DNA of 64,000 bases from Chitinophagales bacterium (GTDB lineage: Bacteria > Bacteroidota > Bacteroidia > Chitinophagales > Chitinophagaceae). The stretch spans positions 4,228-68,227 of the forward strand of contig JACJXR010000009.1 in the NCBI GenBank assembly GCA_020636505.1. Reading direction: 5' to 3'. Position 1 is the stretch's first letter; each line of letters starts with the position of its first letter. Under the pieces are notes generated by a model. That model was not told the origin of the DNA. It saw nothing but the letters and a program-made list of their open reading frames with translations, and searched no databases. Position numbers and translations under genes: made by a program. Below, piece after piece: positions 9,826-31,088 of this stretch.

Positions 9826-9899
9826 GGCCCCGTAGCTCAACTGAATAGAGCATCTCACTACGGATGAGAAGGTTTCAGGTTTGAATCCTGACGGGGTCA
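9826..9899 (+). tRNA. tRNA-Arg(ACG): tRNA-Arg, anticodon ACG
   Basis: Hand-folded cloverleaf. The acceptor stem GGCCCCG/CGGGGTC has one G-U; D stem GCTC/GAGC; anticodon stem TCTCA/TGAGA with loop CT-ACG-GA; 5-nt variable loop; T stem TCAGG/CCTGA; discriminator A. CCA is not encoded. Confidence 0.9.
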
Positions 9900-9901
9900 C
9901 T
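9886..9901 (+). repeat. attL core: TCCTGACGGGGTCACT (3' end of tRNA-Arg)
   Basis: Covers tRNA positions 60-73 plus 2 nt. It is identical to 31035-31050. Confidence 0.85.
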
Positions 9902-9913
9902 ACAAAGTAATTG

Positions 9914-9948
9914 AAAGCCTGACTAGTAGCGATCTAGCCAGGCTTTTT
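9914..9948 (+). terminator. Element-borne hairpin + T-run downstream of the reconstituted tRNA
   Basis: AAAGCCTG/CAGGCTTT outer stem plus CTAG/CTAG inner stem, followed by TTTTT. Confidence 0.55.
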
Positions 9949-9955
9949 CATTTTT

Positions 9956-10000
9956 GGGTACAACATAGGGCAAACATTTGCATGTTTTAACTCATTTTTC
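9956..10000 (+). repeat. Left-arm copy of a ~45-bp motif shared with the integrase upstream region (candidate arm-type site)
   Basis: GGGTACAACATAGGGCAAACA-tttgca-TGTTTT-aa-CTC here versus GGGTACAACATGGGGCAAACA-aaaagg-TGTTTT-tg-CTC at 30910-30953. The first 21 bp are 20/21 identical, in the same orientation. Confidence 0.6.
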
Positions 10001-10111
10001 CTTTTCAGTGGTTTGTTTATCGAGTAACCGTCTCAAAAGAAACCTCATACACCCAATAGGGAACAGTGCACATTCCGAGTTGAGTTTGTGTAGGAGTAAA
10101 CAAAATACAGC

Positions 10112-10360
10112 TTAACTCTTATCCTTAATTCTGAAGTAGGAATGCCTAACAGGGATATTGAATATGAAGTATACCAAATAACCTCTGTCTGACCTTAATA
10201 CAGCCTCGACGTAGTATGTGATACCAGAATGGAAATCTTTTACAGATACAATACATATTACTCTTATCGGCACTCTCAGGTATAACATCTGACCAGTTTT
10301 GGTTATAATCCATAGTCCATCAATGTCGTCTCCTGGGTCGTCATAATCTGTGATATCCAT
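10112..10360 (-). CDS. Hypothetical small protein (82 aa)
   Basis: Starts 4 nt after the stop of the upstream DUF3871-like gene on the same strand, which suggests operon packing. No recognisable motif. Confidence 0.45.
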   Translation of the reverse strand: MDITDYDDPGDDIDGLWIITKTGQMLYLRVPIRVICIVSVKDFHSGITYYVEAVLRSDRGYLVYFIFNIPVRHSYFRIKDKS

Positions 10361-10364
10361 AGTT

Positions 10365-11375
10365 TTAGTTTAAGTACCAACAGTCATCAGAAGAATCCAG
10401 GGCATGTTGTAATTGTGACACTAACTCAAAGGCATTTACGTTCCTATCCATAAAGTAGTCCACATATGAGCTCTTGTTGGCATTTGTGAACAGATTGTAC
10501 AGCTTCCATAGATTAATGCTCCCATCTGGTGAACTACAGAAGCTATTATCAGAGTAGTAGTCTTTACAGACTGTATTGATCTGACTATCCCCGAACATAA
10601 GGTCCGGTAGTTCCTTTTTCTTCTTTTCAGGCATGTGCCTGTACATTCTGCATCTCCCCACAAGGTTAGCAAACTGCCTTTCTGAGATACTATACTTACT
10701 AAACAAGCCATACAACCTTGACAATTCAACAGCATCGTAGTCTTTAAGAAGCATAAATATGCCGTTATATAGCTGATTGACATTATTTACCCTGAGGTTA
10801 GATAAGTAACCATCTGTAGCTACACACAGGTTAGTACATACCATATTCTTAAAGCCTATAAATACTTTAAAATGTTGGTCTGATGTGGACTTGTTGTATA
10901 GGTTGTCAAGGTTGTATGCCTTTATTCCCCCTACGGTCAGGTTAAGTTTACAACCATCTACTTCTGTTGTTATGGTAGGTATCTCTACTGTAAATGCCAT
11001 ACGCTCGTAATAGATAGTCTTTTCGTGCTCTTTGAGGGCTTTTGCAGGCTTATCCTTTGCTTCCGGCACTCTTCCCTTAACTGGATGAGATATGCGTATT
11101 ACAGGGCTTAAAACAGTCTCTGTAGGGAATACTGCTTTAACTGCCTTAATAGTTGTTTGTATGAACTCAGTATGGCTTATTACGGGCTCATTGTCTTTGA
11201 TGAATACAGGAATGATATGCCCCTTCTTGAGCTCGTTGAAAGTAGCTGAGACAGTGTTAGCTTCTATGAAATGCTGATTGGATGGTACAACCTGTATCTC
11301 ATTTACAACTTCCTGTAACGCAGCAGCTATATGTTTTGACCCATGGGGACTATTGTTATCTGTTAATATGTCCAT
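10365..11375 (-). CDS. DUF3871/DUF932-like phage/plasmid-associated protein
   Basis: The ORF runs to a GTG at 11513, but the ATG at 11375 (MDILTDNN...) limits overlap with the upstream gene to 20 nt. The FKVFIGFKNMVCTNLCV segment resembles the DUF932/DUF3871 core as I recall it. The family assignment is from memory only. Confidence 0.6.
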   Translation of the reverse strand: MDILTDNNSPHGSKHIAAALQEVVNEIQVVPSNQHFIEANTVSATFNELKKGHIIPVFIKDNEPVISHTEFIQTTIKAVKAVFPTETVLSPVIRISHPVKGRVPEAKDKPAKALKEHEKTIYYERMAFTVEIPTITTEVDGCKLNLTVGGIKAYNLDNLYNKSTSDQHFKVFIGFKNMVCTNLCVATDGYLSNLRVNNVNQLYNGIFMLLKDYDAVELSRLYGLFSKYSISERQFANLVGRCRMYRHMPEKKKKELPDLMFGDSQINTVCKDYYSDNSFCSSPDGSINLWKLYNLFTNANKSSYVDYFMDRNVNAFELVSQLQHALDSSDDCWYLN

Positions 11376-12234
11376 TGGCTTGTGTGTTTTGTACGGTTGA
11401 AGAATTGGTTTGTAATTGTAGTTGGTGCTTACGTGCTGTAAACTCTGTTTGTAGGGCTTGTTGGAGCCCAGGGTATGTGTTGTATAGTTGTGTAAGCTCA
11501 GGTATTGAACCACATCCCTGGATCCTTTCGATAATGGAGTTAATCAACTGTTCCCTGGACACTTGTTTACCCTCATTGCACCAATCAAGTATCTGTTTAC
11601 CTGTTTCTACGGTAGGTATGAACTCAGGCTTACCAAAGAATAGCTGTGTCCTGTCCTTAGATACTCGTGCATGTAAGTTTGTATCAAGGTCAAATACGAT
11701 AGTAAATTCGTAGTCAAGACCTTCTCTTTGCACTCCTTTAAGTCCTACTTTTTCAGGAACCATCTTACCGTTCTTGTCAGATAACACATAATCCTGTTTG
11801 GCTCGTATAGTTCCTATAACATGTACATCTGATTGTAGCATAGCATTGACAAATGCATTGTGACGTGGTGTAACCTTATTCCAGTTAGTGAAAGAGTTAC
11901 CGACCATCTTGGCATGTATATCAAGTATAGTTTCCCATTCGTGTGTAAGACTGTCGATAATAATCACAGAAACACCTCCCTGGATGCATACATTGATAGC
12001 TTGTATGTAACGTTCTGGACTGAATGGAGGCTCTAAGTGCAGCACTTTGAAGTTGCCCACATCGCTATACAATTCAGAGCTACGATTCTCTGTATCTATA
12101 ACAGCAATCTTATCCCAGGACCCACACAGTCCATAAGCTATGTACAAAGCGGATTTGGTCTTGCCTGAACCAGACGGTCCTTGTAAGGCACATTTTATCT
12201 TTACTTTCTTTCGTGAAGCTGTATTTAACTGCAT
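11356..12234 (-). CDS. AAA_24 / Sak4-like RecA-fold ATPase (phage-type recombination/replication accessory protein)
   Basis: Walker A GPSGSGKTKSAL, then IAVIDTENRS, and Walker B VSVIIIDSLTHEW. Size (292 aa) and layout are typical of PF13479-type phage ATPases. Confidence 0.75.
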   Translation of the reverse strand: MQLNTASRKKVKIKCALQGPSGSGKTKSALYIAYGLCGSWDKIAVIDTENRSSELYSDVGNFKVLHLEPPFSPERYIQAINVCIQGGVSVIIIDSLTHEWETILDIHAKMVGNSFTNWNKVTPRHNAFVNAMLQSDVHVIGTIRAKQDYVLSDKNGKMVPEKVGLKGVQREGLDYEFTIVFDLDTNLHARVSKDRTQLFFGKPEFIPTVETGKQILDWCNEGKQVSREQLINSIIERIQGCGSIPELTQLYNTYPGLQQALQTEFTARKHQLQLQTNSSTVQNTQANGHINR

Positions 12235-12254
12235 ATGATTTGATTTTGATGAAA

Positions 12255-12282
12255 TAAAAAAGCGGAGGTAAACACCCCCGCT
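12255..12282 (-). terminator. Intrinsic-terminator-like hairpin + U-run between the 112-aa gene and the Sak4-like gene (minus strand)
   Basis: The minus strand reads AGCGGGGG-tgtttac-CTCCGCT followed by TTTTTTATTT. Confidence 0.5.
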
Positions 12283-12309
12283 GTACTCTACCTACTAACC
12301 CACGGCAGT

Positions 12310-12648
12310 CTATGCAACCGCAAGCTCTTTACTCGTGTCTGGAATATTAGCAACACCCTCGGGCTGATAATCCCAGGTATGTGCCAACATTATCACTTCA
12401 CCTGTTTCAGGCATAGTGTACTCGTAAGGTTCGCATTGCTTACGAACAATGTTTCCAGGCATTTCCTTACCGACCATACGTTTTGCCGTTATTTCATCGA
12501 AAGTGGATGAAACAAAGCATCTACGTGATGTCGCATAGAAACGTCCTGTGTTTTGAGATTGAACCATCTCAATGTCTCCCATTAACTCAAGGGAAATGAA
12601 GTTTCCTTGTTCGCCTTCACGAACATGATAATTTGCTACAATGATCAT
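12310..12648 (-). CDS. Hypothetical protein (112 aa), first gene of the minus-strand module
   Basis: Clean ORF with an ATG start at the head of the Sak4/DUF3871 operon. No motif I can name; a single-strand-binding partner of Sak4 is only a guess. Confidence 0.55.
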   Translation of the reverse strand: MIIVANYHVREGEQGNFISLELMGDIEMVQSQNTGRFYATSRRCFVSSTFDEITAKRMVGKEMPGNIVRKQCEPYEYTMPETGEVIMLAHTWDYQPEGVANIPDTSKELAVA

Positions 12649-12847
12649 GATTGTACTGTTTTACTGATTTGAAAAAATGTTAGTAGAAAAGTGACGGGTA
12701 GTACCCGACACGCAAAATCGAGCAGGGGGTGAAATATAGGGGTGGATGTTTATTATCTATGTACAGTTTGATTGTTACTGCAGACTGTTTCTATAATTAA
12801 GCTTGAAATTGTGTTGCAAGTACTTTGCTATATTCGCATAAGTATAT

Positions 12848-13774
12848 ATGCAATTTTATATAAAAGCATCTGCATTCATTCTTTGTGCTGTTTTAGCACT
12901 ATTACAACTAATATCTGCTCCAATAGCTTTGGTGTTAGGCATATTTGTCAGTAACACATTAGGTCACCCTTTTCCCAATTTGAATAGCAAGGTTACCAAA
13001 AGGCTATTACAGTTTTCTATTGTTGGTTTAGGTTTTGGAATGAATGTTGAGAATGCACTAGCATCAAGCTTGAATGGTCTACTACTAATAGTTGTAACTA
13101 TTTTTGGTACAATTATTATTGGATATTTCGTTGGAAAGAATTTAAGAGTTGACAAAAAAATATCTTATTTGATTTCAGTCGGTACAGCTATTTGTGGCGG
13201 CAGTGCTATCGCTGCAACAGCTCCTATAATAAATGCCGATGATAATCATATAACAGTATCAATGAGTACTGTTTTTATACTTAACTCAGTTGCCCTTATT
13301 ATATTCCCTGTAATAGGACACTACATTCCACTTACAGAAATACAATTTGGTTATTGGTCAGCCATAGCTATACATGATACAAGTTCTGTAGTAGGTGCCG
13401 CAAGCCAATACGGTAATGAAGCTTTGGAGGTCGCAACAACAGTAAAATTAACACGAGCATTATGGATAGTCCCGCTATCATTATTAACTGCCATATTCTT
13501 CAAGAGTAATTCAGGAAAGACAAAAATTCCCTGGTTTATTGTATTGTTTATCATAGCTATGCTTTTCAATAGCTACTTTCCTGGTTTGGATACGTTCGCA
13601 AAATATATCGTGATCATAGCTAAGTCATGTTTAACCCTGACAATATTCTTGATTGGTTCATCATTGTCATTAAGTTTTATTAAAAAGACAGGTACACGTC
13701 CATTTATACAAGGTTTTTTATTGTGGGTTATTATCTCTATTACATCAATTATTGCTGTAATAGCTATCTACTAA
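12848..13774 (+). CDS. YeiH/UPF0324 family putative sulfate-exporter-type membrane protein
   Basis: 308 aa and strongly hydrophobic throughout. Contains SVGTAICGGSAIAATAPII and AIAIHDTSSVVGAA segments typical of PF03601 proteins. Confidence 0.75.
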   Translation: MQFYIKASAFILCAVLALLQLISAPIALVLGIFVSNTLGHPFPNLNSKVTKRLLQFSIVGLGFGMNVENALASSLNGLLLIVVTIFGTIIIGYFVGKNLRVDKKISYLISVGTAICGGSAIAATAPIINADDNHITVSMSTVFILNSVALIIFPVIGHYIPLTEIQFGYWSAIAIHDTSSVVGAASQYGNEALEVATTVKLTRALWIVPLSLLTAIFFKSNSGKTKIPWFIVLFIIAMLFNSYFPGLDTFAKYIVIIAKSCLTLTIFLIGSSLSLSFIKKTGTRPFIQGFLLWVIISITSIIAVIAIY

Positions 13775-13795
13775 AAAAAACTTATATTTGAATAA

Positions 13796-14197
13796 TTGGT
13801 CTTGAGCATTTTGAAGCAAATACTTGTCATATTAATAGCAATATGTTATGCCTTCGGCAGTGCCGAAGTAAGTTTGCATTTTCATTATTGTGGTAAGGTA
13901 TTTCAATATGTGTCTTTTTTTAGCGATCAAGAGAAAGATTCATGTTGTGGTGAGACAGGGGAAACAGATGGATGTTGTAAAAGCGATGTTGTAAAATGTG
14001 ATGTAGACGATCATAAACAGGGGCCTAAATACTTTCAGTTAAATAAAAAAACAACAGAAGATGCTTCTATAGCTTTAGCTAGTGAATCGTTTGAAACCTC
14101 GAAGTTTGTTAGCTTGATATACCATTACAGCAAGCTACACCCTCCACCAGTTCTCTCAACGAAGGTTTATCTGGATAATTGCGTTTTTCTTATTTGA
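13796..14197 (+). CDS. Small Cys-rich membrane-anchored protein, 'HYC..CC..PP' type (paralog of 16562-16975)
   Basis: TTG start and an N-terminal TM segment. Motifs are HFHYCG, SCCGE..DGCCKSD, VKCDVDD, HPPP and a C-terminal VFLI. It shares motif order with the second copy. Confidence 0.65.
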   Translation: MVLSILKQILVILIAICYAFGSAEVSLHFHYCGKVFQYVSFFSDQEKDSCCGETGETDGCCKSDVVKCDVDDHKQGPKYFQLNKKTTEDASIALASESFETSKFVSLIYHYSKLHPPPVLSTKVYLDNCVFLI

Positions 14198-14309
14198 TAT
14201 AAGTCATAATACGGTCAAACAAACCGTATGAACTAACAATTATGTTATGTTTTTGTTTCTATCTAGTCTGATTGAAATAAGAAAGTTTTATGACTAAAAT
14301 ATAATCAAT

Positions 14310-15653
14310 ATGAAAAAAGCTTTATTGATAATGCTATGCATGTCAGGCATAGCTAATTATACGAATGCGCAAAACGCAATAGATAAATACCTGACAGGTA
14401 CAAATAATTTTAAAGTAGTTGGAAATGCATCTAATGGCTTGCTAAATCCTCAGGATTTAGACTTTGAGCCGGGTACTAATACTTGGTGGGTACTAAATTA
14501 TGAAGGTAATACAGGAAGTGTATCTATATTTTTTGATGCTGATGGACCTGATCAAACATCTGAGTTTAGAAGAGATTCTCACGCCGGACACTTTATGATC
14601 AGAGCGTCTGCAATTGCTATCGGTGATAACGGAAATTTTGCTACCGTGCATGAAATACAAAACACAAACTCCGCATCTCCAACTTTTATGGGGCCTGCAT
14701 TATGGTCAACAGATACATCGATATTTGCTCGATTAGAGCAAAGTAACTGGGATCCGTCTACACTGTTAGGTAGTCACTTAGACATGTTGCACCAAAGCCC
14801 TTTCGCAATGGGTATAGCTCACGACAACGCAAATGCTTATTGGGTGTTTGATGGTTATAATGGCAATATTTGTAAGTACGATTTTAAGGCACCTCATATT
14901 GTAGGTGGAGATGATCATGCAGATGGAGAAATATACAGATATACTGATGTTACGGTTAAACGCAAATCCGGTGTGCCGAGTCATATGGCCCTGGATAAGC
15001 AGAATAACTGGCTGTATATAGTCGATGGTGGTAATAATCGGATTATAAGAATGAAAACCAATGATGCTACAGACGCAGGCCCTTTGACAGTGCCAAGTAC
15101 AGCTGGAGAGCCGCTCGCAAAATACCGCAATATGACTGGGGCTACTGTAGAAGTTCTCGTAAGTAGTGGACTAACCTCCCCGTGTGGAATTGACTATAAG
15201 GATAACAGAATTGTAGTGACAGATAATGCCACAGGAGAGATAATCATTTACGATGTGAGTAATGCACCTGCTACAGAAGTTGGAAGAATACAATCTGATG
15301 CCGGAATTATGGGTGTGAGAATTGATTGGGATAATGGAATATGGTTTGTTAATAGAAATAAGAGGCAGCTTGTAAAAATTGAGAATGCTAACGTGCCGAC
15401 AAGTATTAATGGCATACAGTCCAATACGAACCTTGTTGTATATCCTGTTCCGGCTCACGATATTTTAAATGTTGAATGGAATGGTGATGACGCTGCTGTA
15501 ATGTTGGTTGATGTTACTGGTAGAACTGTGTACCAAAATAAAATGACCGGAAAGAAGCTGACAATTAATTCTTCTGCCATGCCATCAGGAATGTATACCT
15601 TAGTCTTAAGAACAGATAAACAAGCGATCGCAAGAAAAGTGTTAATAGAATAA
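14310..15653 (+). CDS. Secreted NHL/beta-propeller-like protein with T9SS type A C-terminal sorting domain
   Basis: Signal peptide (MKKALLIMLCMSGIANYTNAQ). NHL-like strands YIVDGGNNRIIRM and IVVTDNATGEIIIYD. C-terminal VVYPVPAHDILNVEW...GMYTLVLRTD...KVLIE. Confidence 0.75.
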   Translation: MKKALLIMLCMSGIANYTNAQNAIDKYLTGTNNFKVVGNASNGLLNPQDLDFEPGTNTWWVLNYEGNTGSVSIFFDADGPDQTSEFRRDSHAGHFMIRASAIAIGDNGNFATVHEIQNTNSASPTFMGPALWSTDTSIFARLEQSNWDPSTLLGSHLDMLHQSPFAMGIAHDNANAYWVFDGYNGNICKYDFKAPHIVGGDDHADGEIYRYTDVTVKRKSGVPSHMALDKQNNWLYIVDGGNNRIIRMKTNDATDAGPLTVPSTAGEPLAKYRNMTGATVEVLVSSGLTSPCGIDYKDNRIVVTDNATGEIIIYDVSNAPATEVGRIQSDAGIMGVRIDWDNGIWFVNRNKRQLVKIENANVPTSINGIQSNTNLVVYPVPAHDILNVEWNGDDAAVMLVDVTGRTVYQNKMTGKKLTINSSAMPSGMYTLVLRTDKQAIARKVLIE

Positions 15654-16226
15654 ATGCAACTTCATATAAAAAATATGGTTTGCGACCGATGTAAATTGGT
15701 AGTAAAGGCTGAGCTTGAAAAGCTTGGCCTTTCTCCATTATCGGTACAGTTGGGTGTCGTGCAGTTACAAGAAGAATCTATACCAAATGAAGTCGTAGAA
15801 AAATTAAAAAACAGACTTAAAGAGTTAGGCTTTGAAATTATAGATGACAGGCGCAGCAGGTTAATAGAGGGAGTCAAAAAAATCATTATTGAGCTACTAT
15901 ATTCTGATAACGAATACCCTAATGTAAAGGTAAGTGACCTTCTGGCTAATAAGCTACACTATGATTATAGCTATTTGAGCAGATTGTTCTCAGAGACAGA
16001 AGGCATTACTATTGAACATTACCTGATACTGCAAAAAATAGAGCGGACAAAAGAACTGATTATATACGATGAACTTACATTGTCAGATATAGCGTACCAA
16101 TTAGGCTATAGCAGCACAGCACATTTGTCTGCTCAATTTAAAAAAGTCACAGGCATGACTCCTGGAACATTTCGCAAACAACAAGCCCAAAGCAGAAAAG
16201 AATTGGATAAAGTAGGTAAAAAGTAA
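15654..16226 (+). CDS. AraC-family transcriptional regulator with N-terminal HMA-like (CxxC) metal-binding domain
   Basis: N-terminus reads MQLHIKNMVCDRCKLVVKAEL (HMA fold, C-x-x-C). The C-terminal AraC HTH region reads LSDIAYQLGYSSTAHLSAQFKKVTGMTPGTFRK. The ATG directly abuts the upstream TAA. Confidence 0.85.
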   Translation: MQLHIKNMVCDRCKLVVKAELEKLGLSPLSVQLGVVQLQEESIPNEVVEKLKNRLKELGFEIIDDRRSRLIEGVKKIIIELLYSDNEYPNVKVSDLLANKLHYDYSYLSRLFSETEGITIEHYLILQKIERTKELIIYDELTLSDIAYQLGYSSTAHLSAQFKKVTGMTPGTFRKQQAQSRKELDKVGKK

Positions 16227-16309
16227 AAATCTTGTAAATATTAGCGTGAATTCTATAAGGCTGATAAATATGATAGAAGGAACTTTGTACTGTACTAATA
16301 TCTATTGAG

Positions 16310-16522
16310 ATGAGCGAACTAAAATTCAAAACAAATATTAACTGTGGCGGCTGTGTCAAAGCTGTGTCTGGTACATTAAATTGCAACTTAGAGATTGAGT
16401 CCTGGAATGTAGATGTAACCAATCCTGACAAGATATTAACTGTTAAAACAAATACACTTAGCCCGGAACAGGTAGTAGAATTGATTAACAATATAGGATT
16501 TGTAGCAAAACAAGCATCTTAG
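16310..16522 (+). CDS. Heavy-metal-associated (HMA) domain protein, CopZ-like chaperone
   Basis: 70 aa. KFKTNINCGGCVKAV carries a CxxC in the usual first-loop position of the ferredoxin-like HMA fold. Confidence 0.8.
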   Translation: MSELKFKTNINCGGCVKAVSGTLNCNLEIESWNVDVTNPDKILTVKTNTLSPEQVVELINNIGFVAKQAS

Positions 16523-16561
16523 TCACCTGTAGTCAAGATTTGGTATCTTTATGAATAGACA

Positions 16562-16975
16562 ATGAAAAAAGTCTTAGTAGCCATATTATCCATCTTTTAT
16601 CTTCTGAGCTCTTCAGGCTTCGTTGTATATGAGCACTACTGCATGGGAGAGTTGGCGCAGGCCTCTATATCCAACAATGTTTCTGACAAGGGACAATGCA
16701 GTAAGTGTGGTATGGAGAATAAAAAGGGTGAAGAAAATGGCTGCTGTAAAGACGAACAGAAGTTTGTAAAAACAGATGACCAGAATACTGGTGTTAAGTT
16801 AGTTATTAACAAGAGCCTTATTACATTAGCAGACCTGCCATCTTATTTAACCTACGATTATACGCTTCATTCATCTTACGGTACTGATATTAACACAGGG
16901 CTACCTCATGCTCCTCCATATACAGATATCTACAAGCATCCTATTTTCATTCGGGTGCAGTCTTTATTGATTTGA
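16562..16975 (+). CDS. Small Cys-rich membrane-anchored protein, 'HYC..CC..PP' type (paralog of 13796-14197)
   Basis: N-terminal TM segment. Motifs are YEHYCMG, QCSKCG..ENGCCKDE, VKTDDQ, HAPPY and a C-terminal SLLI. Confidence 0.7.
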   Translation: MKKVLVAILSIFYLLSSSGFVVYEHYCMGELAQASISNNVSDKGQCSKCGMENKKGEENGCCKDEQKFVKTDDQNTGVKLVINKSLITLADLPSYLTYDYTLHSSYGTDINTGLPHAPPYTDIYKHPIFIRVQSLLI

Positions 16976-17099
16976 TACAACACATTTTTTGCGATAGCTA
17001 TTAGTGCATCCAAACTATAGCACACTATAGTATGCATTAACGTCTGTCGCATTTTTGTTGCCCACCAATCATATTTAATAATTTAAAAATATTTATCTT

Positions 17100-17702
17100 A
17101 TGAAAAGTTTAATTTATGTCATGTTACTCATGAGCGCAGTAATGTTTGTAGCATGTAATAATGGTAATGATACACATCACGATCATAACCATGATGGTCA
17201 TGAGCATGGTATGTCCAACGAAGATATTCCTGTTGTAAAAGCAGAAATGGAAACAGATTCAATGTTTCAGGAACACATAGATGTAATCGCTCACTTTTAT
17301 ACACATATTCAAACAGCATTAGCTGATGATGATACAAAAGAGGCTTCCATTAGAGCTAAGCAGCTTTTAGCTCATATGCACGAATACGATACAGTAACAT
17401 TTAGTGAGAACGAACAGGAAGTGTATGATAAATATGAAGCTAAAATAGTTGAACTGTCTAGTGCTATCCAAAGTGCTGAGGATATAGATGCGCAAAGGAA
17501 ACATTTTGAAAGTATGTCAGATGTTATGTACCAGCTAGTGAAAACTATTGGCACGACAGAGCCATTGTACAAATCATATTGCCCTATGGCTTTCGATGGC
17601 AAAGGTGCAATGTGGCTGAGCGAAACTGAGGAAATAGCTAATCCATACTACGGAGCTTCCATGTATAGCTGCGGTAGTGTGCAGGAAGTTGTGAAGCGAT
17701 AA
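17100..17702 (+). CDS. DUF3347 domain lipoprotein with His-rich N-terminal stretch
   Basis: Lipobox-like MFVAC, then DTHHDHNHDGHEHG. The C-terminal YKSYCPMAFDGKGAMWLSETEEIANPYYGASMYSCGSV is characteristic of DUF3347. Confidence 0.8.
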   Translation: MKSLIYVMLLMSAVMFVACNNGNDTHHDHNHDGHEHGMSNEDIPVVKAEMETDSMFQEHIDVIAHFYTHIQTALADDDTKEASIRAKQLLAHMHEYDTVTFSENEQEVYDKYEAKIVELSSAIQSAEDIDAQRKHFESMSDVMYQLVKTIGTTEPLYKSYCPMAFDGKGAMWLSETEEIANPYYGASMYSCGSVQEVVKR

Positions 17703-17730
17703 ATACAATCAAGGCATCATAAATCAAATT

Positions 17731-21525: not shown

Positions 21526-21527
21526 TA

Positions 21528-22766: not shown

Positions 22767-22767
22767 A

Positions 22768-24528: not shown

Positions 24529-24546
24529 TACTTAAAATGGTTTGTC

Positions 24547-26571
24547 ATGGAACACAATCATCATAAACATCACGAACACCACCATAATCACAAAAATGCA
24601 CATGCTGGTCATGAACATAGTGGACAAGGGCATCATGGTCATGATCATAATGCCATGATAGCTGATTTTAGAAAGCGTTTTTACATCGTATTGGTATTGA
24701 CTATTCCAACTATGTTGCTTTCTCCGATGATACAGCATTGGATGGGTGTTGAATGGTCTTTTACAGGTAGTGAATACCTTTTATTCGCTTTGTCATCCGT
24801 CATATTTGTGTATGGTGGCTGGCCATTCCTTTCAGGTCTTGTAAATGAACTCAAAAGTAAGAGCCCGGGAATGATGACATTGATAGGTTTTGCTATCTCT
24901 GTAGCATTTATTTACAGCAGTGCCACTGTGTTTGGACTTGAAGGTTCTGATTTTTTTTGGGAACTGGCAACTCTAATACTCATTATGCTATTAGGACACT
25001 GGATAGAGATGAAATCAGTAGCAGGTGCGTCCAAGGAATTAGAAATGCTGGTCAAGCTAATGCCATCTGAAGCACATTTAGTAAAAGGAGATACTACAGA
25101 AGAAGTGAAAACAGATAGCCTGCAGCCGGGTGATGTTATATTAATTAAGCCAGGTGAAAAAATTGCAGCAGACGGGATAATCAAAGATGGTAGTTCTCAT
25201 ATTAATGAATCGATGCTGACAGGTGAATCAAAACCTGTATCGAAAGAAAAAGGAGACAAAGTAATAGCAGGTTCCATCAATGGTAACGGAGCTATAAAGG
25301 TTGAAGTCTCTCATGGAACTAAAGACTCATATTTGTCACAGGTTATAAAGCTTGTTAGTGATGCCCAAAAGAGCAAATCAAAAACACAATTAATGGCAGA
25401 TACTGCCGCAAATTGGTTGACCATTATAGCTATAGTGTCTGGTATTACTACTTTTTTGGCGTGGTACTTATCAGGTCATGATCTTGCATACTCGATGGAG
25501 CGAATGGTAACAGTAATTATTATCTGTTGTCCTCATGCGCTTGGGCTTGCAGTGCCTTTAGTTGTCGCACGTTCAACAACTATTTCGGCTAAGAATGGTC
25601 TTTTGATAAAAAACAGAACCTCATTTGAGAATTCAAGAAAAGTAACAACTGTTGTCTTTGACAAAACAGGGACACTGACAATTGGAGAGTTTAAAGTTGT
25701 TCGTTTTAAAGCGTATACAGATTCGTATTCTGATGATGAGGTATTGGCGTTAGCCGCAGCAATAGAAGGCAGCTCAGAGCATCCTATTGCGGTAGGTATC
25801 GTTAATAAGGCAAAAGAGAAAGGATTACCTGTTCCTAAAGTGCAAGATGTTGAAGCTATTACAGGAAAGGGTATTTCAGCTAAATATGACAATAAAGAAG
25901 TACACATAGTTAGTCCAGGCTACCTCAAAGAAAAAAATATTACAATACCTGAACAGCAAGATGATGCTACTACACAGGTCTATATCCTTATTGATAATGA
26001 ACTTGCAGGAACTATAGCATTAGCGGATGAAATAAGAGAAGAGTCATATGAGGCGATTGATGAATTGAAGAAAGAAGGCGTAAAAAGCATGTTGTTAACA
26101 GGTGATAACGGTAAAGTCGCAAAGGCTGTAGCTGATAAATTGGGTATGGAAGATTTTATTGCAGAAGTTTTACCACACCAGAAGTTGGAACATATAAAAG
26201 ACTTGCAGGGTAAAGGAGAATTTGTAGCCATGACAGGTGATGGTATCAATGACGCTCCTGCATTAGCACAGGCAGATATAGGAATTGCGATAGGGTCAGG
26301 ATCTGATATTGCTGCTGAAACAGCAGGGATAGTGTTAGTGAACAGCAATCCTAAAGACGTGACCGGGTTAATTAAGTTTGGTAAAGCTACTTACAGGAAA
26401 ATGATACAAAACCTGATATGGGCAACAGGATATAATGTGATAGCTATGCCGGTAGCGGCAGGTGTGCTTTATAGTTGGGGTCTTATTCTCAGCCCAGCTG
26501 TAGGTGCTGTTTTAATGACTGTGAGTACAGTGGTAGTTGCTATTAATGCAAGTTTGTTGAAGGTGAGGTAG
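24547..26571 (+). CDS. copB: Heavy-metal (copper) P1B-type ATPase, CopB-like (CPH motif, His-rich N-terminus)
   Basis: 16 His in the first 37 aa. Motifs are TGESKPV, CCPHALGLAVP (CPH), FDKTGTLT and MTGDGINDAPAL. Confidence 0.85.
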   Translation: MEHNHHKHHEHHHNHKNAHAGHEHSGQGHHGHDHNAMIADFRKRFYIVLVLTIPTMLLSPMIQHWMGVEWSFTGSEYLLFALSSVIFVYGGWPFLSGLVNELKSKSPGMMTLIGFAISVAFIYSSATVFGLEGSDFFWELATLILIMLLGHWIEMKSVAGASKELEMLVKLMPSEAHLVKGDTTEEVKTDSLQPGDVILIKPGEKIAADGIIKDGSSHINESMLTGESKPVSKEKGDKVIAGSINGNGAIKVEVSHGTKDSYLSQVIKLVSDAQKSKSKTQLMADTAANWLTIIAIVSGITTFLAWYLSGHDLAYSMERMVTVIIICCPHALGLAVPLVVARSTTISAKNGLLIKNRTSFENSRKVTTVVFDKTGTLTIGEFKVVRFKAYTDSYSDDEVLALAAAIEGSSEHPIAVGIVNKAKEKGLPVPKVQDVEAITGKGISAKYDNKEVHIVSPGYLKEKNITIPEQQDDATTQVYILIDNELAGTIALADEIREESYEAIDELKKEGVKSMLLTGDNGKVAKAVADKLGMEDFIAEVLPHQKLEHIKDLQGKGEFVAMTGDGINDAPALAQADIGIAIGSGSDIAAETAGIVLVNSNPKDVTGLIKFGKATYRKMIQNLIWATGYNVIAMPVAAGVLYSWGLILSPAVGAVLMTVSTVVVAINASLLKVR

Positions 26572-26704
26572 CAATTCAATTTTACTTTGCATAGCTCTGA
26601 GAATATATTATTCAGTTCATTCCACCTGCAGCAACCTTACGTTTTCATCAATGTTGATTATAACCTTCACTGTATATGATTAATCAACTAATCAATCCTG
26701 TTCT

Positions 26705-26730
26705 ATGTAAGAGTACAATAACGCTATATA
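26705..26730 (+). repeat. Iteron-like motif pair, copy 1 (ATGTAAGAGTACA + AATAACGCTATATA)
   Basis: AATAACGCTATATA at 26717-26730 recurs exactly at 26863-26876. ATGTAAG(A/G)GTA recurs at 26879. Confidence 0.5.
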
Positions 26731-26862
26731 ATCCCAATATATATAAACTGAAAGCTGCTGTTAGCGTATAACTATAACTGTTTTACAATTAATAGTATGC
26801 TATTGCTATTTAAGCCTCGCCCTAGGGTAAGTTTATTATATCTGTTAATCTTGTAGAGAATT

Positions 26863-26892
26863 AATAACGCTATATATTATGTAAGGGTAACA
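26863..26892 (+). repeat. Iteron-like motif pair, copy 2 (AATAACGCTATATA + ATGTAAGGGTAACA)
   Basis: The same two half-motifs as at 26705-26730, in swapped order, 146 bp downstream. Confidence 0.5.
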
Positions 26893-27084
26893 AGTATTTC
26901 AAAAGGTAAAAAGAGGTGAAAATACTATGTATCTGCCACCTTTGCTTTATTACTTCGATATACTATGGCATGACTAATTATTTTCAGTTAAGCATTCTAA
27001 AGTCATTAAGCATATTCAATTATAACCTCAGGATAAACCCCGGCTATCCCTTATATTTGCATTACTGCATCACCAAAAGCAGTA

Positions 27085-27210
27085 CGAGAACATAGAAACT
27101 TAGAAAGAAACGTATCAGCAAGAGAAAGAAAGAAAGAAGAAGTAGCAGAACATTCCACAGAAGAAGAAACACTAGAGAAGAATCACATAAAAAAATCAAG
27201 CCGAAGAAAA
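27085..27210 (+). other. ~125-bp strongly purine-rich (A/G) tract on the + strand
   Basis: Reads ...GAGAACATAGAAACTTAGAAAGAAACG..AGAGAAAGAAAGAAAGAAGAAGTAGCAGAA..CAGAAGAAGAAAC..AGAGAAGAA..AAAAAATCAAGCCGAAGAAAA. It contains no ORF of 60 aa or more. Confidence 0.7.
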
Positions 27211-27295
27211 TTTCCTAACACCTCAATCACAGTTCGACTGTGCATTTTTATGAATTTAAACATGGATTACCTGTGGTTGACAACACAGATAACAA

Positions 27296-28798
27296 ATGAA
27301 GTTTGAGATACCTTCTAACTTGAAGGTGAAACGCATCGTTTTTGATGCTGATGAAAGGAGTAATGATATCGCCATAGATAAGCTCCATTATGTATGCCAC
27401 ATTATTAATCGGTTAATGCTTCGTCTTGATGATGATATGCGTTATAACGGATCAGACTATAAGTATGGTGTGCCTCTTAATAGCAGAGCCTTAAGAAAGG
27501 CACTTGGTAGACGGTACAGAGATACAATTGACGTGCTTATAGAGCATGGTATTATTGAAACCAACGATGTGTTTGAAGTAGGTAAAACTAGTAAGCAATA
27601 TAGGTTTACTGAGCAGTATAGGTATAGTAGCACCAAGTATGTAGCACCGAAAACAAACAAGTATAGAGAATTCTCTATTCCCCAAGGGGCTGTTAAAATC
27701 GATGCTTCTACTTTCTATGATGTGAGGTTAGTAAAAAGGGTGCAGAAAATGTTTGTCGGGCTGACTATAGATGTAATAGCAGCAAACTCTTGGGTTGATA
27801 AATATTATGAAGAGCAGCGTCAAGTGATTATATCTGCCAAGAACAAAAAAGCTATACAACGCAAGCTGAAAGAACTTGTTATAAAATGTAATGGTTATAG
27901 AGAGAGTATCAGGAAGGTACACGTCAAAGAAGCCTCTTTTGTACAAGATGCGTTTGGGCATAGGTTGCACACGCCTTTAACAAGACTAAAGAAAGAACTA
28001 AGACAATTTGTCAGATATGATGGTATGCCTCTTGTTGAGATTGATATTGCAAACAGTCAATTATTCTTTATGATACCTCTTCTTCAGTGGAAAATGTATC
28101 ATCCACAAGCTGGAGGAGGGGAGAAAAATACTTTTAAACATAGAATATGGATAGGAGAAGACCAAAGAGAGACATATAGGAATACCATTATGTGGTGCAA
28201 AGAGGTTGAAATGCAATATAGTAAAGGCTTACAGGAGATAAGTTTTGTCTCCGATGCATGCAAAGGAATTGTATATGAACGTGTTGCCCAATATCTGAGT
28301 GCTAGTGGATACTTTAAAAACGAGGAGGCGAAAGAAGAAAAGAGAGCGCATGTTAAGAAGTATCTACTAAAGTTGATTTTTGCTTCACCAACAAAAAACT
28401 ACAGCATGTACAATGCAAGCATTGGAGCCATATGGGATGCTTTTAAGGCTTGTTATCCAGAGATAGGTAAATTGGTTATCTTGATAAAGGGAGTAGATTA
28501 TAAGGCAATATCAAGGCTGTTACAACGCATAGAGAGCTACTGCATAATAGGTAGTGTTTGTAAGATAGTAAATGATAAAAATGCTGACATCCCATTATTT
28601 ACATTGCATGATTGCATTGTTACAACAGATAATTATGTTGAAACTGTGGAGAAAGAGCTATTAGGTATTATTACAGAATTGATTGGGTTTACACCAACCG
28701 TTAAGAGGAAGGTGTGGAATGTGAAGAAAACACAGTTTACTATGTTAAAGAATTACATTGACCGTATAAGTAATTTGATAAGAAAAAGGGCCGCATAA
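27296..28798 (+). CDS. Hypothetical 500-aa protein: N-terminal winged-helix-like region plus C-terminal region with family-A/T7-like polymerase motifs A, B and C (candidate element replicase)
   Basis: Motifs are GHRLHT (aa 221-226), LVEIDIANSQLFFM (D250), R350-x3-K354-x3-L358-x3-F362 and LFTLHDCIV (H438-D439). These are by-eye motif matches only. It is certainly a coding ORF; the function is inferred. Confidence 0.5.
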   Translation: MKFEIPSNLKVKRIVFDADERSNDIAIDKLHYVCHIINRLMLRLDDDMRYNGSDYKYGVPLNSRALRKALGRRYRDTIDVLIEHGIIETNDVFEVGKTSKQYRFTEQYRYSSTKYVAPKTNKYREFSIPQGAVKIDASTFYDVRLVKRVQKMFVGLTIDVIAANSWVDKYYEEQRQVIISAKNKKAIQRKLKELVIKCNGYRESIRKVHVKEASFVQDAFGHRLHTPLTRLKKELRQFVRYDGMPLVEIDIANSQLFFMIPLLQWKMYHPQAGGGEKNTFKHRIWIGEDQRETYRNTIMWCKEVEMQYSKGLQEISFVSDACKGIVYERVAQYLSASGYFKNEEAKEEKRAHVKKYLLKLIFASPTKNYSMYNASIGAIWDAFKACYPEIGKLVILIKGVDYKAISRLLQRIESYCIIGSVCKIVNDKNADIPLFTLHDCIVTTDNYVETVEKELLGIITELIGFTPTVKRKVWNVKKTQFTMLKNYIDRISNLIRKRAA

Positions 28799-28809
28799 GC
28801 AGCCCTTTT
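28784..28809. terminator. Hairpin overlapping the stop codon of 27296-28798, between convergent genes
   Basis: AAAAGGGC...GCCCTTTT stem with an inner GC/GC pairing, followed by a T-rich run. Confidence 0.5.
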
Positions 28810-29000
28810 ATTACATTCGAATATGCAAATTGCTATACCATCTCACCTCGTTTCAGCGTTTCACAGGAGAAATCAATGTCTCACTATGTATATCTGATAA
28901 TTTATCATTTTCATGCGTTGTAGAGCTATAGCCTTGGTAAACAAAGTGTGTTGCCAATAGGTAGTAACAAGCTTTACCTTTTGCGTTATCATTCTTATTC

Positions 29001-29402
29001 TCAACCATTTTTATGACTATTTATAAACTGTTCAACATGCTCCTTTGTATATAGGTATTTTCTGCTTCCTGGAGCTTTTACAAATCCGATATAACCATTA
29101 TCACGATACTTCTGTAATGTCTTGCGACTTACTTTCAACATGCGGCAAACTTGTGCTGTATTGTAGTATTGTGTTTCTTCAGCATGTTCTTTGCTGAAAT
29201 GTTGAAGAATAAACTGCTTAACCGCAGTGATTACTTCTGGGCTGTCTAAAGCCTGTAACACCTCATCTTTTACATAGACGTTACCTAGTGCATCTACATA
29301 TGCACCTTTCTGTTTCCCTTCGTCGAGGTATACCTGTAGCCTTTGTTCAGGCATACCTAGACGTCTGGCTAATGCCAGTTTCTCATTCTTGTTTTTAGGC
29401 AT
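29001..29402 (-). CDS. Excisionase-family / MerR-like helix-turn-helix DNA-binding protein (Xis candidate)
   Basis: The C-terminal half reads YYNTAQVCRMLKVSRKTLQKYRDNGYIGFVKAPGSRKYLYTKEHVEQFI, which fits the excisionase-type HTH pattern. It lies next to the integrase. Confidence 0.7.
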   Translation of the reverse strand: MPKNKNEKLALARRLGMPEQRLQVYLDEGKQKGAYVDALGNVYVKDEVLQALDSPEVITAVKQFILQHFSKEHAEETQYYNTAQVCRMLKVSRKTLQKYRDNGYIGFVKAPGSRKYLYTKEHVEQFINSHKNG

Positions 29403-29672
29403 AATAAACCTGTTAGTACTGCTTCATAGCAATACATGTTAATTAATACAACATGTAAGACTACCACGCCGTGCTGTGGTAGAATCCGTATGCTTGGGTA
29501 TACTGATACTGTAAGTATACACCTAAACAAATTCAGCCTTACAGCAATATCAGACTGAACCTGTCAATGAAGCCCCACTAATGCTCAAGAGATTGAGCTT
29601 TTAGGTTCTAAGTGGAGTAATACGACTATTGTCGTATAGCAAAACTATGTTTCTGCTTTGTTTTTACAAAAA

Positions 29673-30884
29673 TTATTCATCAAACGCTTTCATAGACTGA
29701 TCCAAGTCGGCATTGACGATCTTAGCGTAAATAAGAGTCTCTCGTATGTTTGCATGGCCTAATAGCTTTTGTACATGTTCTATAGGTATTCCTCTTCGCA
29801 GGGCATTTGTTGCAAATGAGTGTCTGCTAACGTGAAAGGAAAGATTTTTATTAATATCTGCTTTTTTCGCTATTGATTTCAGGTTCTTATTGATCTTAGC
29901 AGTAGCTAAAGTAATTGCTTTGTCTAGCTTAACAGGGTCTGCTTTTGTAATATCCTCATGCAAGCATGCGAATACATAGTCGTTCTCTTCGTTTCCTTTA
30001 GCCCTGTATCTGTTTAGGATATTCTGAGCGACTTTAGGCATGTATATAGTAGATTGAACGCCTGTCTTCTGAATAACAATGTTTATATGCTCTCCGGATA
30101 TGTTCCCCCATTTCAGTAATAACACATCTGATACTCTCAGTCCACATGCATAACATGAAAAAATGAACATGTCACGGTGTTTTTGTAGTCTAGGGCTGTC
30201 CGATAGGTCCAAATGCATGATAGCATCGATCTCATGTTGAAGAAGATACGCTCTCTCTGTTTTTGCTGATCTTAAGGTTATCTTTCCAAAAGGGTTGTCC
30301 CTTTGCTCGATTAGCCCTTCCTTGACTGCTGTATTAAATACCTGACGGATGAATTTAAGATTACTGTGAACGGTACTGGCAGAGTTGCCAATAACTTTAA
30401 CCATATACCTTTCGTATTTCTTGATAAAACTTACGTCAATATCTGTAAATGCATAACTGTCTTTTCCAACATACTTTTTTAGTTTAGCAATTACAGATTT
30501 CGTTCGATCATATGTACCTATTTTACCTTTTGCATAATATCCGTTAACAATACTGTTTGCGACTGCGAAAAAGTCTTCATTGCTGGTTCCGTTCAAGGTT
30601 GCTTTTATCTCTTTAACGCTGACATGAAGGTCTTTGCTCTCTGTCTTCAAGAGACTATTAAGGATAGCAGTTTCTTTCGTTCTAAGCATATTATTCATAC
30701 GAACACTATTTGGGTGGGTAGTTTTCACGACCTTTCTTTGGTCATCCCAGAATCGCTCTTCTATTCGTATGCCAGTTGCAATATTTGTACTTTTTCGGTT
30801 TTTAATTATCCTGAAATAAAGGGGTAGTGTTCCTTTCTTGTTTAGCTTATCCTTTCTTAGTACTAGTTGTATAGATGATGCCAT
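29673..30884 (-). CDS. Tyrosine-type site-specific integrase
   Basis: Start chosen at MASSIQLVLRKDKLNKKGTLPLYFRI, the typical Bacteroidota integrase N-terminus. Catalytic pattern: GLRVSD (R), HVSRHSFAT (H-x-x-R), LLGH and TLIYAKI (Y). Confidence 0.9.
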   Translation of the reverse strand: MASSIQLVLRKDKLNKKGTLPLYFRIIKNRKSTNIATGIRIEERFWDDQRKVVKTTHPNSVRMNNMLRTKETAILNSLLKTESKDLHVSVKEIKATLNGTSNEDFFAVANSIVNGYYAKGKIGTYDRTKSVIAKLKKYVGKDSYAFTDIDVSFIKKYERYMVKVIGNSASTVHSNLKFIRQVFNTAVKEGLIEQRDNPFGKITLRSAKTERAYLLQHEIDAIMHLDLSDSPRLQKHRDMFIFSCYACGLRVSDVLLLKWGNISGEHINIVIQKTGVQSTIYMPKVAQNILNRYRAKGNEENDYVFACLHEDITKADPVKLDKAITLATAKINKNLKSIAKKADINKNLSFHVSRHSFATNALRRGIPIEHVQKLLGHANIRETLIYAKIVNADLDQSMKAFDE

Positions 30885-30909
30885 AATTAAATTATTTCTG
30901 TAAAAAAAG

Positions 30910-30953
30910 GGGTACAACATGGGGCAAACAAAAAGGTGTTTTTGCTCCTCAAT
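30910..30953 (+). repeat. Right-arm copy of the ~45-bp motif (partner 9956-10000), in the integrase upstream region
   Basis: See 9956-10000. It also forms an imperfect palindrome, GGGGCAAACA-aaaagg-TGTTTTTGCTCC. Confidence 0.6.
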
Positions 30954-31034
30954 AATGCCTATTGTTACTCGATAAAAAATATTAATATGATTGCTGAGAG
31001 AGGAATACAGTAAATCAAAGAGTAAGAATGGGTA

Positions 31035-31050
31035 GGAAGTGTTTTCCTGA
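31035..31050 (+). repeat. attR core: TCCTGACGGGGTCACT
   Basis: Exact copy of 9886-9901. No tRNA body precedes it. Confidence 0.85.
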
Positions 31051-31060
31051 CGGGGTCACT

Positions 31061-31088
31061 TGATGATGAAGCCCACCGCAAAGCGGTA
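31061..31088 (+). terminator. Hairpin + T6 immediately right of attR (likely the original tRNA-Arg terminator)
   Basis: GCCCACCGC-aaa-GCGGTAGGGC (one bulged A) followed by TTTTTT. Confidence 0.65.

Follow-up and report, generated by a model that had tools for sequence, protein, structure and literature searches.

Minimal family-A-like DNA polymerases of 400-600 amino acids (aa), known as TV-Pols, lack a nuclease domain and have been described in Bacteroidetes (Iyer, Abhiman & Aravind 2008, PMC2579912). A subset with an extra N-terminal domain is linked to lambda-type integrases, and TV-Pols were predicted to be the primase-polymerases of replicative mobile elements (PMC2579912). For CcPol of the staphylococcal cassette chromosome SCCmec, biochemical work has demonstrated priming of DNA synthesis together with a small partner protein (PMC7581432). 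These integrase-linked TV-Pols (PMC2579912) and the CcPol-MP primase of SCCmec (PMC7581432; PMC10061031) are the precedents for the mechanism considered in this paper. Here, we report a computational analysis of a 64-kb stretch of contig JACJXR010000009.1 (hereafter, the window) from a Chitinophagaceae bacterium near Flavipsychrobacter and Taibaiella, which carries an element of 21,159 bp (9902-31060) integrated in the 3' end of a tRNA-Arg(ACG) gene.

The stretch 9902-31060 is very probably an integrated mobile island. It belongs to a large and for the most part undescribed family of polymerase-bearing, cargo-swapping elements of Bacteroidota, which insert at the 3' ends of tRNA genes; it would be excised by an integrase (Int) with an HTH_17 protein, be replicated by a module of its own and depend on a helper for transfer. 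A tRNA-inserted metal-resistance island is ordinary by itself, and the interest of this one lies in its backbone, which ties a large polymerase-like family lacking a Pfam model and the common DUF3871 to a testable cycle of integration at a tRNA, excision and self-replication.

Insertion at the 3' end of tRNA-Arg(ACG)

The element was inserted site-specifically at the 3' end of tRNA-Arg and has an intact integrase, an Xis-like protein and conserved arm boxes. Its ends are marked by the following features, where handles of the form L004 denote related loci:

9826-9900, plus strand: intact tRNA-Arg(ACG) (ARAGORN; Rfam RF00005, 60.8 bits), whose 3' end is the integration target (attB half)
9886-9901, plus strand: attL core, the exact 16-mer TCCTGACGGGGTCACT, identical with the tRNA 3' end
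9914-9946: element-borne hairpin and T-run, which give the reconstituted tRNA a terminator-like structure; kept in the left arms of L069 and L070
9956-9976, plus strand: left-arm 21-nt box GGGTACAACATAGGGCAAACA, a candidate arm-type integrase binding site, kept in L069 and L070
30910-30930, plus strand: right-arm 21-nt box GGGTACAACATGGGGCAAACA, a candidate arm-type site in the right arm
31045-31060, plus strand: attR core, the second copy of TCCTGACGGGGTCACT, with no tRNA body upstream
About 31070-31098, plus strand: flanking hairpin with T6, outside the element and directly 3' of the tRNA in the empty site of L004

The tRNA-Arg(ACG) gene is the sole tRNA of the window according to both ARAGORN and Rfam. 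The 16-mer is present exactly twice in the 64 kb, and none of 100 dinucleotide-preserving shuffles contained two copies; since the bases bordering both copies differ on either side, the direct repeat is exactly 16 nt long. An earlier note on this DNA, made from the letters alone, had recognised both copies and the missing tRNA body at the second, but had placed the latter at 31035-31050. It lies 10 nt further to the right, and the element therefore ends at 31060. The hairpin with T6 that was taken for the original tRNA terminator is likewise real but stands at about 31070-31098, not at 31061-31088, while the distinct element-borne hairpin behind the reconstituted tRNA, given as 9914-9948, was found at 9914-9946.

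The 21-nt box GGGTACAACATRGGGCAAACA occurs once in each arm, and none of 100 shuffles reached this count of two in the window. In the right arms of L035, L036 and L038, the box is almost unchanged, despite integrases that are only about 60% identical; relatives with such integrases have retained the arm box and have different tRNA-like cores. A 13-nt inverted repeat also connects the arms (10016-10028, TTTATCGAGTAAC; 30964-30976, GTTACTCGATAAA). It is not conserved in the sister element described below, and could be an accessory-protein site or a chance match.

The recombination genes are located just inside the right end:

29673-30920 (probable start 30884), minus strand: tyrosine integrase (PF00589, PF13102, PF17293)
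29001-29402, minus strand: HTH_17/MerR-like protein of the excisionase family (PF12728, E = 2.7e-13; phrog_66; TIGR01764, 26.8 bits with a cut-off of 28.8)
28868-28957, minus strand: 30-aa remnant of DUF5131 (tblastn, 43% over 30 aa, E = 2e-4), a gene that is intact in L035, L036 and L038

The integrase consists of an N-terminal Arm-DNA-bind_5 domain followed by SAM_5 and Phage_integrase domains, has an intact catalytic R...HxxR...H...Y set, and is 95%, 62% and 59% identical to the integrases of L036, L035 and L038, respectively. The HTH_17 protein is co-conserved with the integrase in the same three relatives (72-95%) and is a candidate recombination directionality factor. The tyrosine integrase and Xis-like HTH protein that had been proposed at this end from the open reading frames (ORFs) are hence confirmed by domains, catalytic residues and HTH_17 assignment.

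About 12 related genomes keep rlmH next to tRNA-Arg(ACG), and in these the 10 kb around the pair are free of element genes. In the chromosome OZ245820.1 of a Flavipsychrobacter metagenome-assembled genome (L004), the tRNA-Arg runs straight into TTGATGATGAAGCCCACCGCATAGCGG…, a sequence homologous to window positions 31045-31147 (86% identical over 103 nt). The earlier note had proposed looking among relatives for an empty site, and L004 supplies one in which tRNA-Arg is joined directly to a homologue of the right-side sequence. The flanking hairpin, being common to L004, is ancestral relative to the present insertion; it may itself be a relic left by an older element, given that a second copy of the core (the tRNA 3' end) lies in L004 just past the hairpin, about 165 nt downstream of the tRNA. 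L004 also preserves a decayed start of the backbone gene e112 with its upstream region, 87% identical to window 12637-12715; this remnant and the second core are located at 9365-9442 and about 9644-9661 (minus strand) of L004. These scars indicate that a related element once sat at the L004 site and was almost entirely deleted, and the second core and the e112 remnant together imply that tRNA-Arg is a recurrent target at which older elements decay in place. Rfam detected no family besides the tRNA in the window or in L004, and the conserved 79-nt stretch matches no Rfam RNA. No strain-level empty site was found: an exact look-up of rlmH gave one 1.3-kb contig, and that of a 303-aa protein in the right flank gave none. 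Synteny of the right flank is lost in all relatives save for one gene in L010, where the tRNA is absent.

The GC content inside the element is 0.383, compared with 0.445 in the left flank and 0.429 at 33.9-64 kb (Mann-Whitney p = 1.8e-8, 1-kb windows). The adjoining right flank, 31061-33900, is equally AT-rich (GC 0.380), so that the AT-rich interior reported earlier stands against the left flank and 33.9-64 kb but not against this neighbouring segment. The segment encodes the 303-aa protein without family match, a DUF983 protein, a DUF7683 protein and a protein resembling the small terminase subunit TerS. This last gene, at 33103-33729 and 2 kb past attR, matches Terminase_2 with 28 bits and phrog_51 with E = 7e-11; a 60% identical homologue lies 2.2 kb from rlmH in L010, where no tRNA adjoins. 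An older island or satellite inserted at this tRNA may have left the segment 31061-33900 behind. On the left, positions 8-8566 (plus strand) are occupied by a giant ORF of 2,852 aa with many internal repeats, which has a 55% identical homologue in L004 and is unrelated to the element.

Backbone, cargo and relatives

The gene for the polymerase-like protein stands in the right-hand part of the element:

27296-28798, plus strand: minimal family-A-polymerase-like protein of 500 aa, TV-Pol-like in fold, exonuclease domain absent

An AlphaFold2 (AF2) model of this protein (21 family sequences) had a predicted local distance difference test score (pLDDT) of 81.8 and a predicted template modelling score of 0.78. 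The top 50 Foldseek matches in the PDB are all family-A DNA polymerases, each with probability 1.00 and a template modelling score (TM) of about 0.4, and include Aquifex Pol I, Klenow, Taq, Bst, the apicoplast polymerase and Pol theta. The best viral fold matches are phage proteins of 400-430 aa with TM up to 0.79, one of which is named 'putative DNA polymerase I'. The label 'polymerase-like', given to this gene before any search was made, is therefore borne out by a family-A polymerase fold.

Across the polymerase family, R223, R236, D250, K354, H438 and D439 are invariant. R350 is invariant only in the closer relatives (alignment A3) and less than 90% conserved in the full family alignment (A1), whereas K354 is invariant in both. 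The predicted layout places two helices at 160-179 and 184-209, R223 and R236 in a hairpin, D250 at a strand end, R350xxxK354 within the helix 346-362 and H438-D439 at a hairpin turn; the conserved residues fall in predicted secondary-structure elements as expected for motifs A, B and C. We presume that the 500-aa protein is the replication primase-polymerase of the element.

The polymerase family is not rare, an exhaustive search with its hidden Markov model (HMM) having returned 9,848 cluster representatives, of which 3,696 were at E ≤ 1e-30; Pfam holds no model for it. Some longer members (P0146, P0158, P0162 and P0255) have C-terminal fusions to the homing-endonuclease domains NUMOD4 and HNH_3, which are typical of phage genes. 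A helicase fusion in the longer members was ruled out, since the extra part is the HNH homing endonuclease. Phage records of 595-735 kb and IMG/VR contigs of 270-390 kb contain distant members. In the Microcystis phage Ma-LMM01 (L155), the 506-aa hypothetical protein MAP_030 (22746-24266, minus strand) lies beside two transposase genes and, because these adjoin, was assumed to be the TV-Pol of that phage. MAP_030 and the polymerase-like protein of the window both have LLQRIE with HD about 25 residues further on, in the same order and spacing, and LLQRIE, HD and D align in order.

The genes at the opposite end of the element are:

10112-10360, minus strand: e82, an 82-aa backbone protein with homologues at the same position in L069 (77%) and L070 (47%)
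10365-11375 (probable ATG start 11375), minus strand: DUF3871 backbone protein (PF12987, E = 9e-113)
11356-12234, minus strand: AAA_24 RecA-like/Sak4-like ATPase (PF13479, E = 4e-14; phrog_1366, E = 4e-80; phrog_124, Sak4-like, E = 4.5e-8)
12310-12648, minus strand: e112, a 112-aa backbone protein, also present in L069 and L070
12637-12715: upstream (promoter) region of the e112 operon, the 87% identical copy of which persists as a scar beside tRNA-Arg in L004

The AAA_24 protein has homologues in 417 phage records, where they are annotated as RecA-like recombination proteins. DUF3871 has more than 5,540 close homologues; its AF2 model (pLDDT 72) gave no significant fold match in the PDB, and a PDB sequence search was empty. 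The one paper found that mentions DUF3871 concerns the iron stimulon of oral and gut Bacteroidetes. Scans of Pfam, PHROG and NCBIfam gave no family match for e82, while e112 had no match in Pfam, PHROG or PDB sequences and its family profile returned only noise from the PDB. A 4,253-bp human faecal contig deposited as 'Bacteriophage sp.' (MT839478.1) carries adjacent homologues of AAA_24 and DUF3871, 53% and 47% identical, and holds the only substantial DUF3871 matches among 50,697 phage records.

A metagenome scan with the closer alignment subset yielded 80 further loci. Recurrence was counted by clustering the ORFs of 49 loci of at least 6 kb: the PolA-like gene was present in 49, the integrase in 24, AAA_24 in 14, DUF3871 (linked to the PolA-like gene) in 13, an XRE regulator in 12, e112 in 8, and HTH_17 and DUF5131 in 5 each. 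Other recurrent clusters were RadC, SSB, a helicase-like protein and a Type ISP restriction enzyme; none of the recurrent clusters in these 49 loci was a capsid, terminase, relaxase or type IV secretion system (T4SS) gene. In at least 9 compact relatives, AAA_24 and DUF3871 adjoin the polymerase gene, divergently and at a distance of 200-480 nt, and in most of these the integrase is just downstream of the polymerase gene. The 'phage-like module' and the polymerase part of the window element are hence two halves of one backbone. The earlier division into three blocks was right in its contents, which are all present, but what it separated are really the two halves of a conserved backbone with cargo wedged between them.

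Throughout the family, tRNA genes are targeted. Cargo is exchanged at one fixed position between the backbone halves, where it has been inserted in the window element and in its sister. An intact tRNA (Val, Asn, Lys, Ser or Thr) adjoins the integrase in 8 relatives examined. The compact relative L101 measures 11.3 kb, is bounded by 32-nt repeats at tRNA-Val, and comprises Fic, an XRE regulator, e112, DUF3871, AAA_24, the polymerase and the integrase; as it has neither HTH_17 nor DUF5131, these two are not universal in the family. Relatives traced through the 500-aa protein have a common right-hand order of XRE, 500-aa protein, DUF5131, HTH_17 and Int, and their cargoes are unrelated: type IX secretion system (T9SS) and RHS proteins, an ImuB-DnaE2 mutasome with WYL and RmuC, or a giant protein.

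One of them, hereafter the sister element, is the Logan contig SRR28393029_9786 (39,094 bp). Its Int and HTH_17 proteins are 95% identical to those of the window and its core is the same; its far end carries the same module of 112-aa protein, AAA_24, DUF3871 and 82-aa protein, 69-80% identical by tblastn. Its cargo consists of RmuC, TerB_C, BrxC/D and a helicase. The two ends of the contig overlap by exactly 17 nt and, when joined, read right arm, core and left arm, collinear with the attP predicted from the window.

The cargo block of the window element, about 13.7 kb at 12848-26571 (plus strand), is wholly different from that of the sister and related elements. It contains, all on the plus strand:

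12848-13774: YeiH-like permease
13796-14197 and 16562-16975: two HYC_CC_PP proteins
14310-15653: T9SS-sorted NHL protein
15654-16226: AraC regulator
16310-16522: HMA metallochaperone
17100-17702: DUF3347 protein
17731-21525: CzcA-type resistance-nodulation-division (RND) pump
21528-22766: outer-membrane factor
22768-24528: CusB-type fusion protein with a heavy-metal-binding domain
24547-26571: His-rich P-type ATPase

Judged by sequence, this cargo is a predicted Czc/Cus-type RND efflux system with a P-type ATPase for heavy-metal resistance. The gene content listed earlier (a DUF3871/Sak4 module, some 14 kb of metal cargo and a polymerase-like gene) was found as stated. P-type metal ATPases are part of the cargo in 4 of the 49 PolA-like loci (L075, L152, L153 and the window, 24547-26571), and metal resistance is therefore a repeated cargo theme of this chassis. 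Other relatives carry other genes. In L038 (20-7635), the ImuB-DnaE2 mutasome is accompanied by WYL, RmuC, HIRAN and SRAP genes. In L070 (1-8017 and 11762-21017), the module of 111-aa protein, AAA_24, DUF3871 and 81-aa protein lies between a nitrous-oxide reductase (nos) cluster and the bacteriophage exclusion (BREX) genes BrxL and PglZ. A left arm and a tRNA-like core accompany it there, while a tRNA body is missing; the chassis may therefore also move denitrification genes.

Between cargo and polymerase gene there is a gap:

26572-27295: non-coding gap of 724 nt, GC 0.32, with a purine-rich stretch at about 27090-27215 and no credible ORF

Homology to the sister element begins only at 27210, within the gap. 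In place of the gap, sister elements carry XRE and 177-aa genes, both of which the window element lacks. A search of 26572-27295 found no iteron array, only weak two-copy repeats. The 'origin-like region' of the earlier note is indeed AT-rich and purine-rich, but because it has no iteron array and no conservation in the sister, the label of origin is unproven.

Scans of all major ORFs of the element with Pfam, PHROG and NCBIfam found no relaxase, T4SS, capsid, portal or terminase gene, and no tail or lysis genes or remnants thereof were found in the element. The element as a whole has no near-identity DNA match in plasmids or in the 50,697 phage records. The opinion that it is neither a classical integrative and conjugative element (ICE) nor a prophage is borne out by this lack of transfer and structural genes, both in the element and in the clusters that recur in the family. 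A defective prophage would account for the phage-type integrase, AAA_24 and polymerase genes, yet it would be expected to leave some capsid, portal, terminase, tail or lysis gene or a remnant of one; moreover, the three delimited members (11, 21 and 39 kb) share the same non-structural backbone and the phage records gave no DNA match. We regard a prophage remnant as highly improbable.

Proposed excision, replication and transfer

The window element is most likely an integrase/Xis-driven, self-replicating cargo island that needs a helper for transfer. In the proposed cycle, Int would bind the arm boxes, with the HTH_17 protein setting the direction, and recombine the two cores; this would release a circle of 21 kb and put tRNA-Arg back in front of its old terminator. 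Once excised, the circle would bring together its genes so that Int, attP, e82, DUF3871, AAA_24 and e112 are contiguous, and it would be copied by the TV-Pol-like primase-polymerase together with the AAA_24, DUF3871, 112-aa and 82-aa proteins. Because the island has no transfer or packaging genes, it must be carried by a helper, and its transfer could be provided by phage particles, a conjugative element, vesicles or transformation.

If the helper were a phage, the island could be a phage satellite resembling the phage-inducible chromosomal islands (PICIs) or virion-encapsidated integrative mobile elements (VEIMEs), induced by the helper, replicated by its own polymerase and packaged in helper capsids. 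An integrase, an Xis-like protein and a replication module without structural genes form the general layout of satellites, and similar modules have been described for VEIMEs and PICI-like tycheposons (PMC9618062; 10.1101/2020.12.28.424599). AAA_24 and the PolA-like protein are phage-type genes, with phage-style HNH fusions in longer PolA-like members; IMG/VR lists the integrase-bearing family members L039, L040 and L049 as viral contigs; the pair of AAA_24 and DUF3871 occurs on the faecal contig deposited as a bacteriophage; and a TerS-like gene is situated 2 kb past attR. This gene, however, lies outside the repeats, and its L010 homologue is near rlmH without a tRNA. Neither the element nor the set of genes recurring in the family includes TerS, capsid-remodelling, pac/cos or phage-interference genes. 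Three members measure 11, 21 and 39 kb, which does not point to a single fixed packaged unit, and this copy is without the XRE-type regulator that a satellite would need to sense a helper. On this evidence a satellite is somewhat unlikely.

Transfer by conjugation would make the island an integrative mobilizable element, moved by a co-resident Bacteroidota conjugative element through an origin of transfer (oriT) on the island. Many tRNA-integrated islands without T4SS genes are reported to be mobilised in trans (PMC5704250), and an oriT may be so small that searches at the protein level miss it. Against this, no relaxase or Mob protein was found among the element ORFs, in the 11.3-kb relative or in the recurrent family clusters, no oriT candidate was seen, and a self-encoded polymerase module is not a usual feature of such elements; we consider this explanation quite improbable.

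It could also be that the island was integrated site-specifically but is now fixed, decaying and no longer excising, with only its metal cargo under selection. The genes lost relative to the sister (XRE, the 177-aa gene and DUF5131) would fit such a state, three assemblies show integrated junctions only, and in-place decay of such elements at this tRNA is documented by L004. Yet the two cores match at all 16 positions and neither arm box is damaged; Int, HTH_17, the PolA-like protein, AAA_24, DUF3871, e112 and e82 are all full-length ORFs with conserved residues; and the compact relative L101 is also without HTH_17 and DUF5131. A fixed island is, in our view, unlikely.

Several observations weigh against a mobile, self-replicating island and have to be set beside the above. 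The empty site comes from a different species (RlmH 74% identical) and is itself scarred, and does not amount to a polymorphism between strains. This exact element was seen neither in excised form nor as an empty site, L152 and L153 having the integrated junction only. Both are independent assemblies and match the window with 100% identity across attR; the contig L151, with a 100% identical partial DUF3871, extends inward to the cargo without crossing the junction. As for the circular junction, which the earlier note had suggested seeking, the order right arm, core and left arm was seen in the sister, but for this copy only the integrated form is on record; and the sister junction, deduced from the 17-nt overlap of the contig ends, may represent either a circle or a tandem array. 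Relative to the sister, the XRE and 177-aa genes are gone from this copy and its DUF5131 has shrunk to 30 aa, so that it may be deregulated or partly decayed. No origin was identified in the element by the repeat search of 26572-27295. The 500-aa protein gave no sequence-level match to solved polymerases, either as a single sequence or as a family profile against the PDB, and its presumed polymerase or primase activity is deduced solely from fold and motifs. The family HMM likewise scored Ma-LMM01 MAP_030 at E = 0.64, with an hhalign probability of 1.8%, which is not significant. Lastly, DUF3871, e112 and e82 have no assignable function, going by the fold search for DUF3871 and the profile of e112 against the PDB.

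Comparison with known systems

No description of this backbone was found in the literature searched. We tentatively suggest, as a possibility short of an even chance, that there is a large unnamed family of tRNA-targeting, cargo-swapping islands in Bacteroidota which replicate as circles by means of a family-A primase-polymerase with AAA_24, DUF3871 and 112-aa partners. If this were true, the family would be the family-A counterpart of the family-B 'self-synthesizing' pipolins and would give a first functional context for DUF3871 and for the unmodelled polymerase family. In soil and water Bacteroidota, one chassis carries metal efflux, BREX- and RmuC-type defence, T9SS/RHS toxins, an ImuB-DnaE2 mutasome or a nitrous-oxide reductase cluster, and the family could serve for studying how islands without transfer genes move from cell to cell.

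In its integration, the element agrees with tRNA-integrated islands of the tyrosine-recombinase type: the intact tRNA with a body-less repeat, the full catalytic set and a between-species empty site were all found. An ICE requires a T4SS, a coupling protein and a relaxase, none of which appeared in the scans of the major ORFs. A PICI requires packaging-hijack genes (for TerS, capsid-size redirection or a capsid) and a helper-responsive repressor; the former are missing inside the repeats, and the XRE regulator of the relatives is absent here. The Pseudomonas islands linked to tmRNA and transduced by jumbo phages ('hitchers'; PMC12595487, PMC11389934) resemble the element in combining integrase, cargo, direct repeats and a small-RNA gene without recognisable autonomous transfer genes; they differ in integrase family, in the tmRNA target and in host, and are not known to have such a replication module.

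The architecture is closer to that of the tycheposons (Hackl et al.; 10.1101/2020.12.28.424599), which also have a tRNA target and partial-tRNA repeats. In these, too, an inward-facing tyrosine recombinase occupies one end, a small replication module lies beside it or at the far end, the interior holds exchangeable cargo, and older elements accumulate and decay next to the tRNA. Tycheposons are, however, defined in Prochlorococcus and other marine bacteria by a lineage-specific recombinase clade and by hallmark profiles (primase, helicase), whereas the likeness here is one of architecture and the replication genes are a TV-Pol-like polymerase, AAA_24 and DUF3871. Pipolins (PMC5695915, PMC11551731) are similar in being often sited at tRNA genes and in having tyrosine recombinases, a DNA polymerase of their own and an exchangeable platform for cargo or defence; their defining polymerase is a primer-independent family-B enzyme (piPolB), while the polymerase here has a family-A fold. 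As for the partner genes, we know of no pipolin that carries the AAA_24/DUF3871 module.

The polymerase itself fits the published account of TV-Pols and has every structural feature listed there. The window protein has their thumb of two long helices, the Arg of the beta-hairpin, the two palm Asp residues and RxxxK, is without a nuclease domain, is 500 aa long, and is linked to an integrase in 24 of 49 loci. TV-Pols are defined by linkage with a D5-like helicase, whereas none was seen here and the RecA-like AAA_24 ATPase is in that position; tRNA targeting, the att architecture and the DUF3871 and e112 partners are not described in PMC2579912. In the CcPol-MP-Cch2 system of SCCmec (PMC7581432, PMC10061031), a truncated A-family polymerase is similarly encoded by the recombinase genes of an integrative resistance island. 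That island differs in its large serine recombinases, its rlmH (orfX) target and its Bacillota hosts, where the present element has a tyrosine recombinase, a tRNA target and a Bacteroidota host, and it has a partner with an oligonucleotide-binding (OB) fold and a D5/DUF927-type helicase, neither of which is identifiable here. Conceivably, e112 might be an OB-fold partner comparable to MP, but its profile gave only noise against the PDB. By analogy, CcPol may be a concrete model for what the 500-aa protein does, and if the latter primes in the same way, A-family primase-polymerases would reach a second phylum beyond Bacillota, with different partners.

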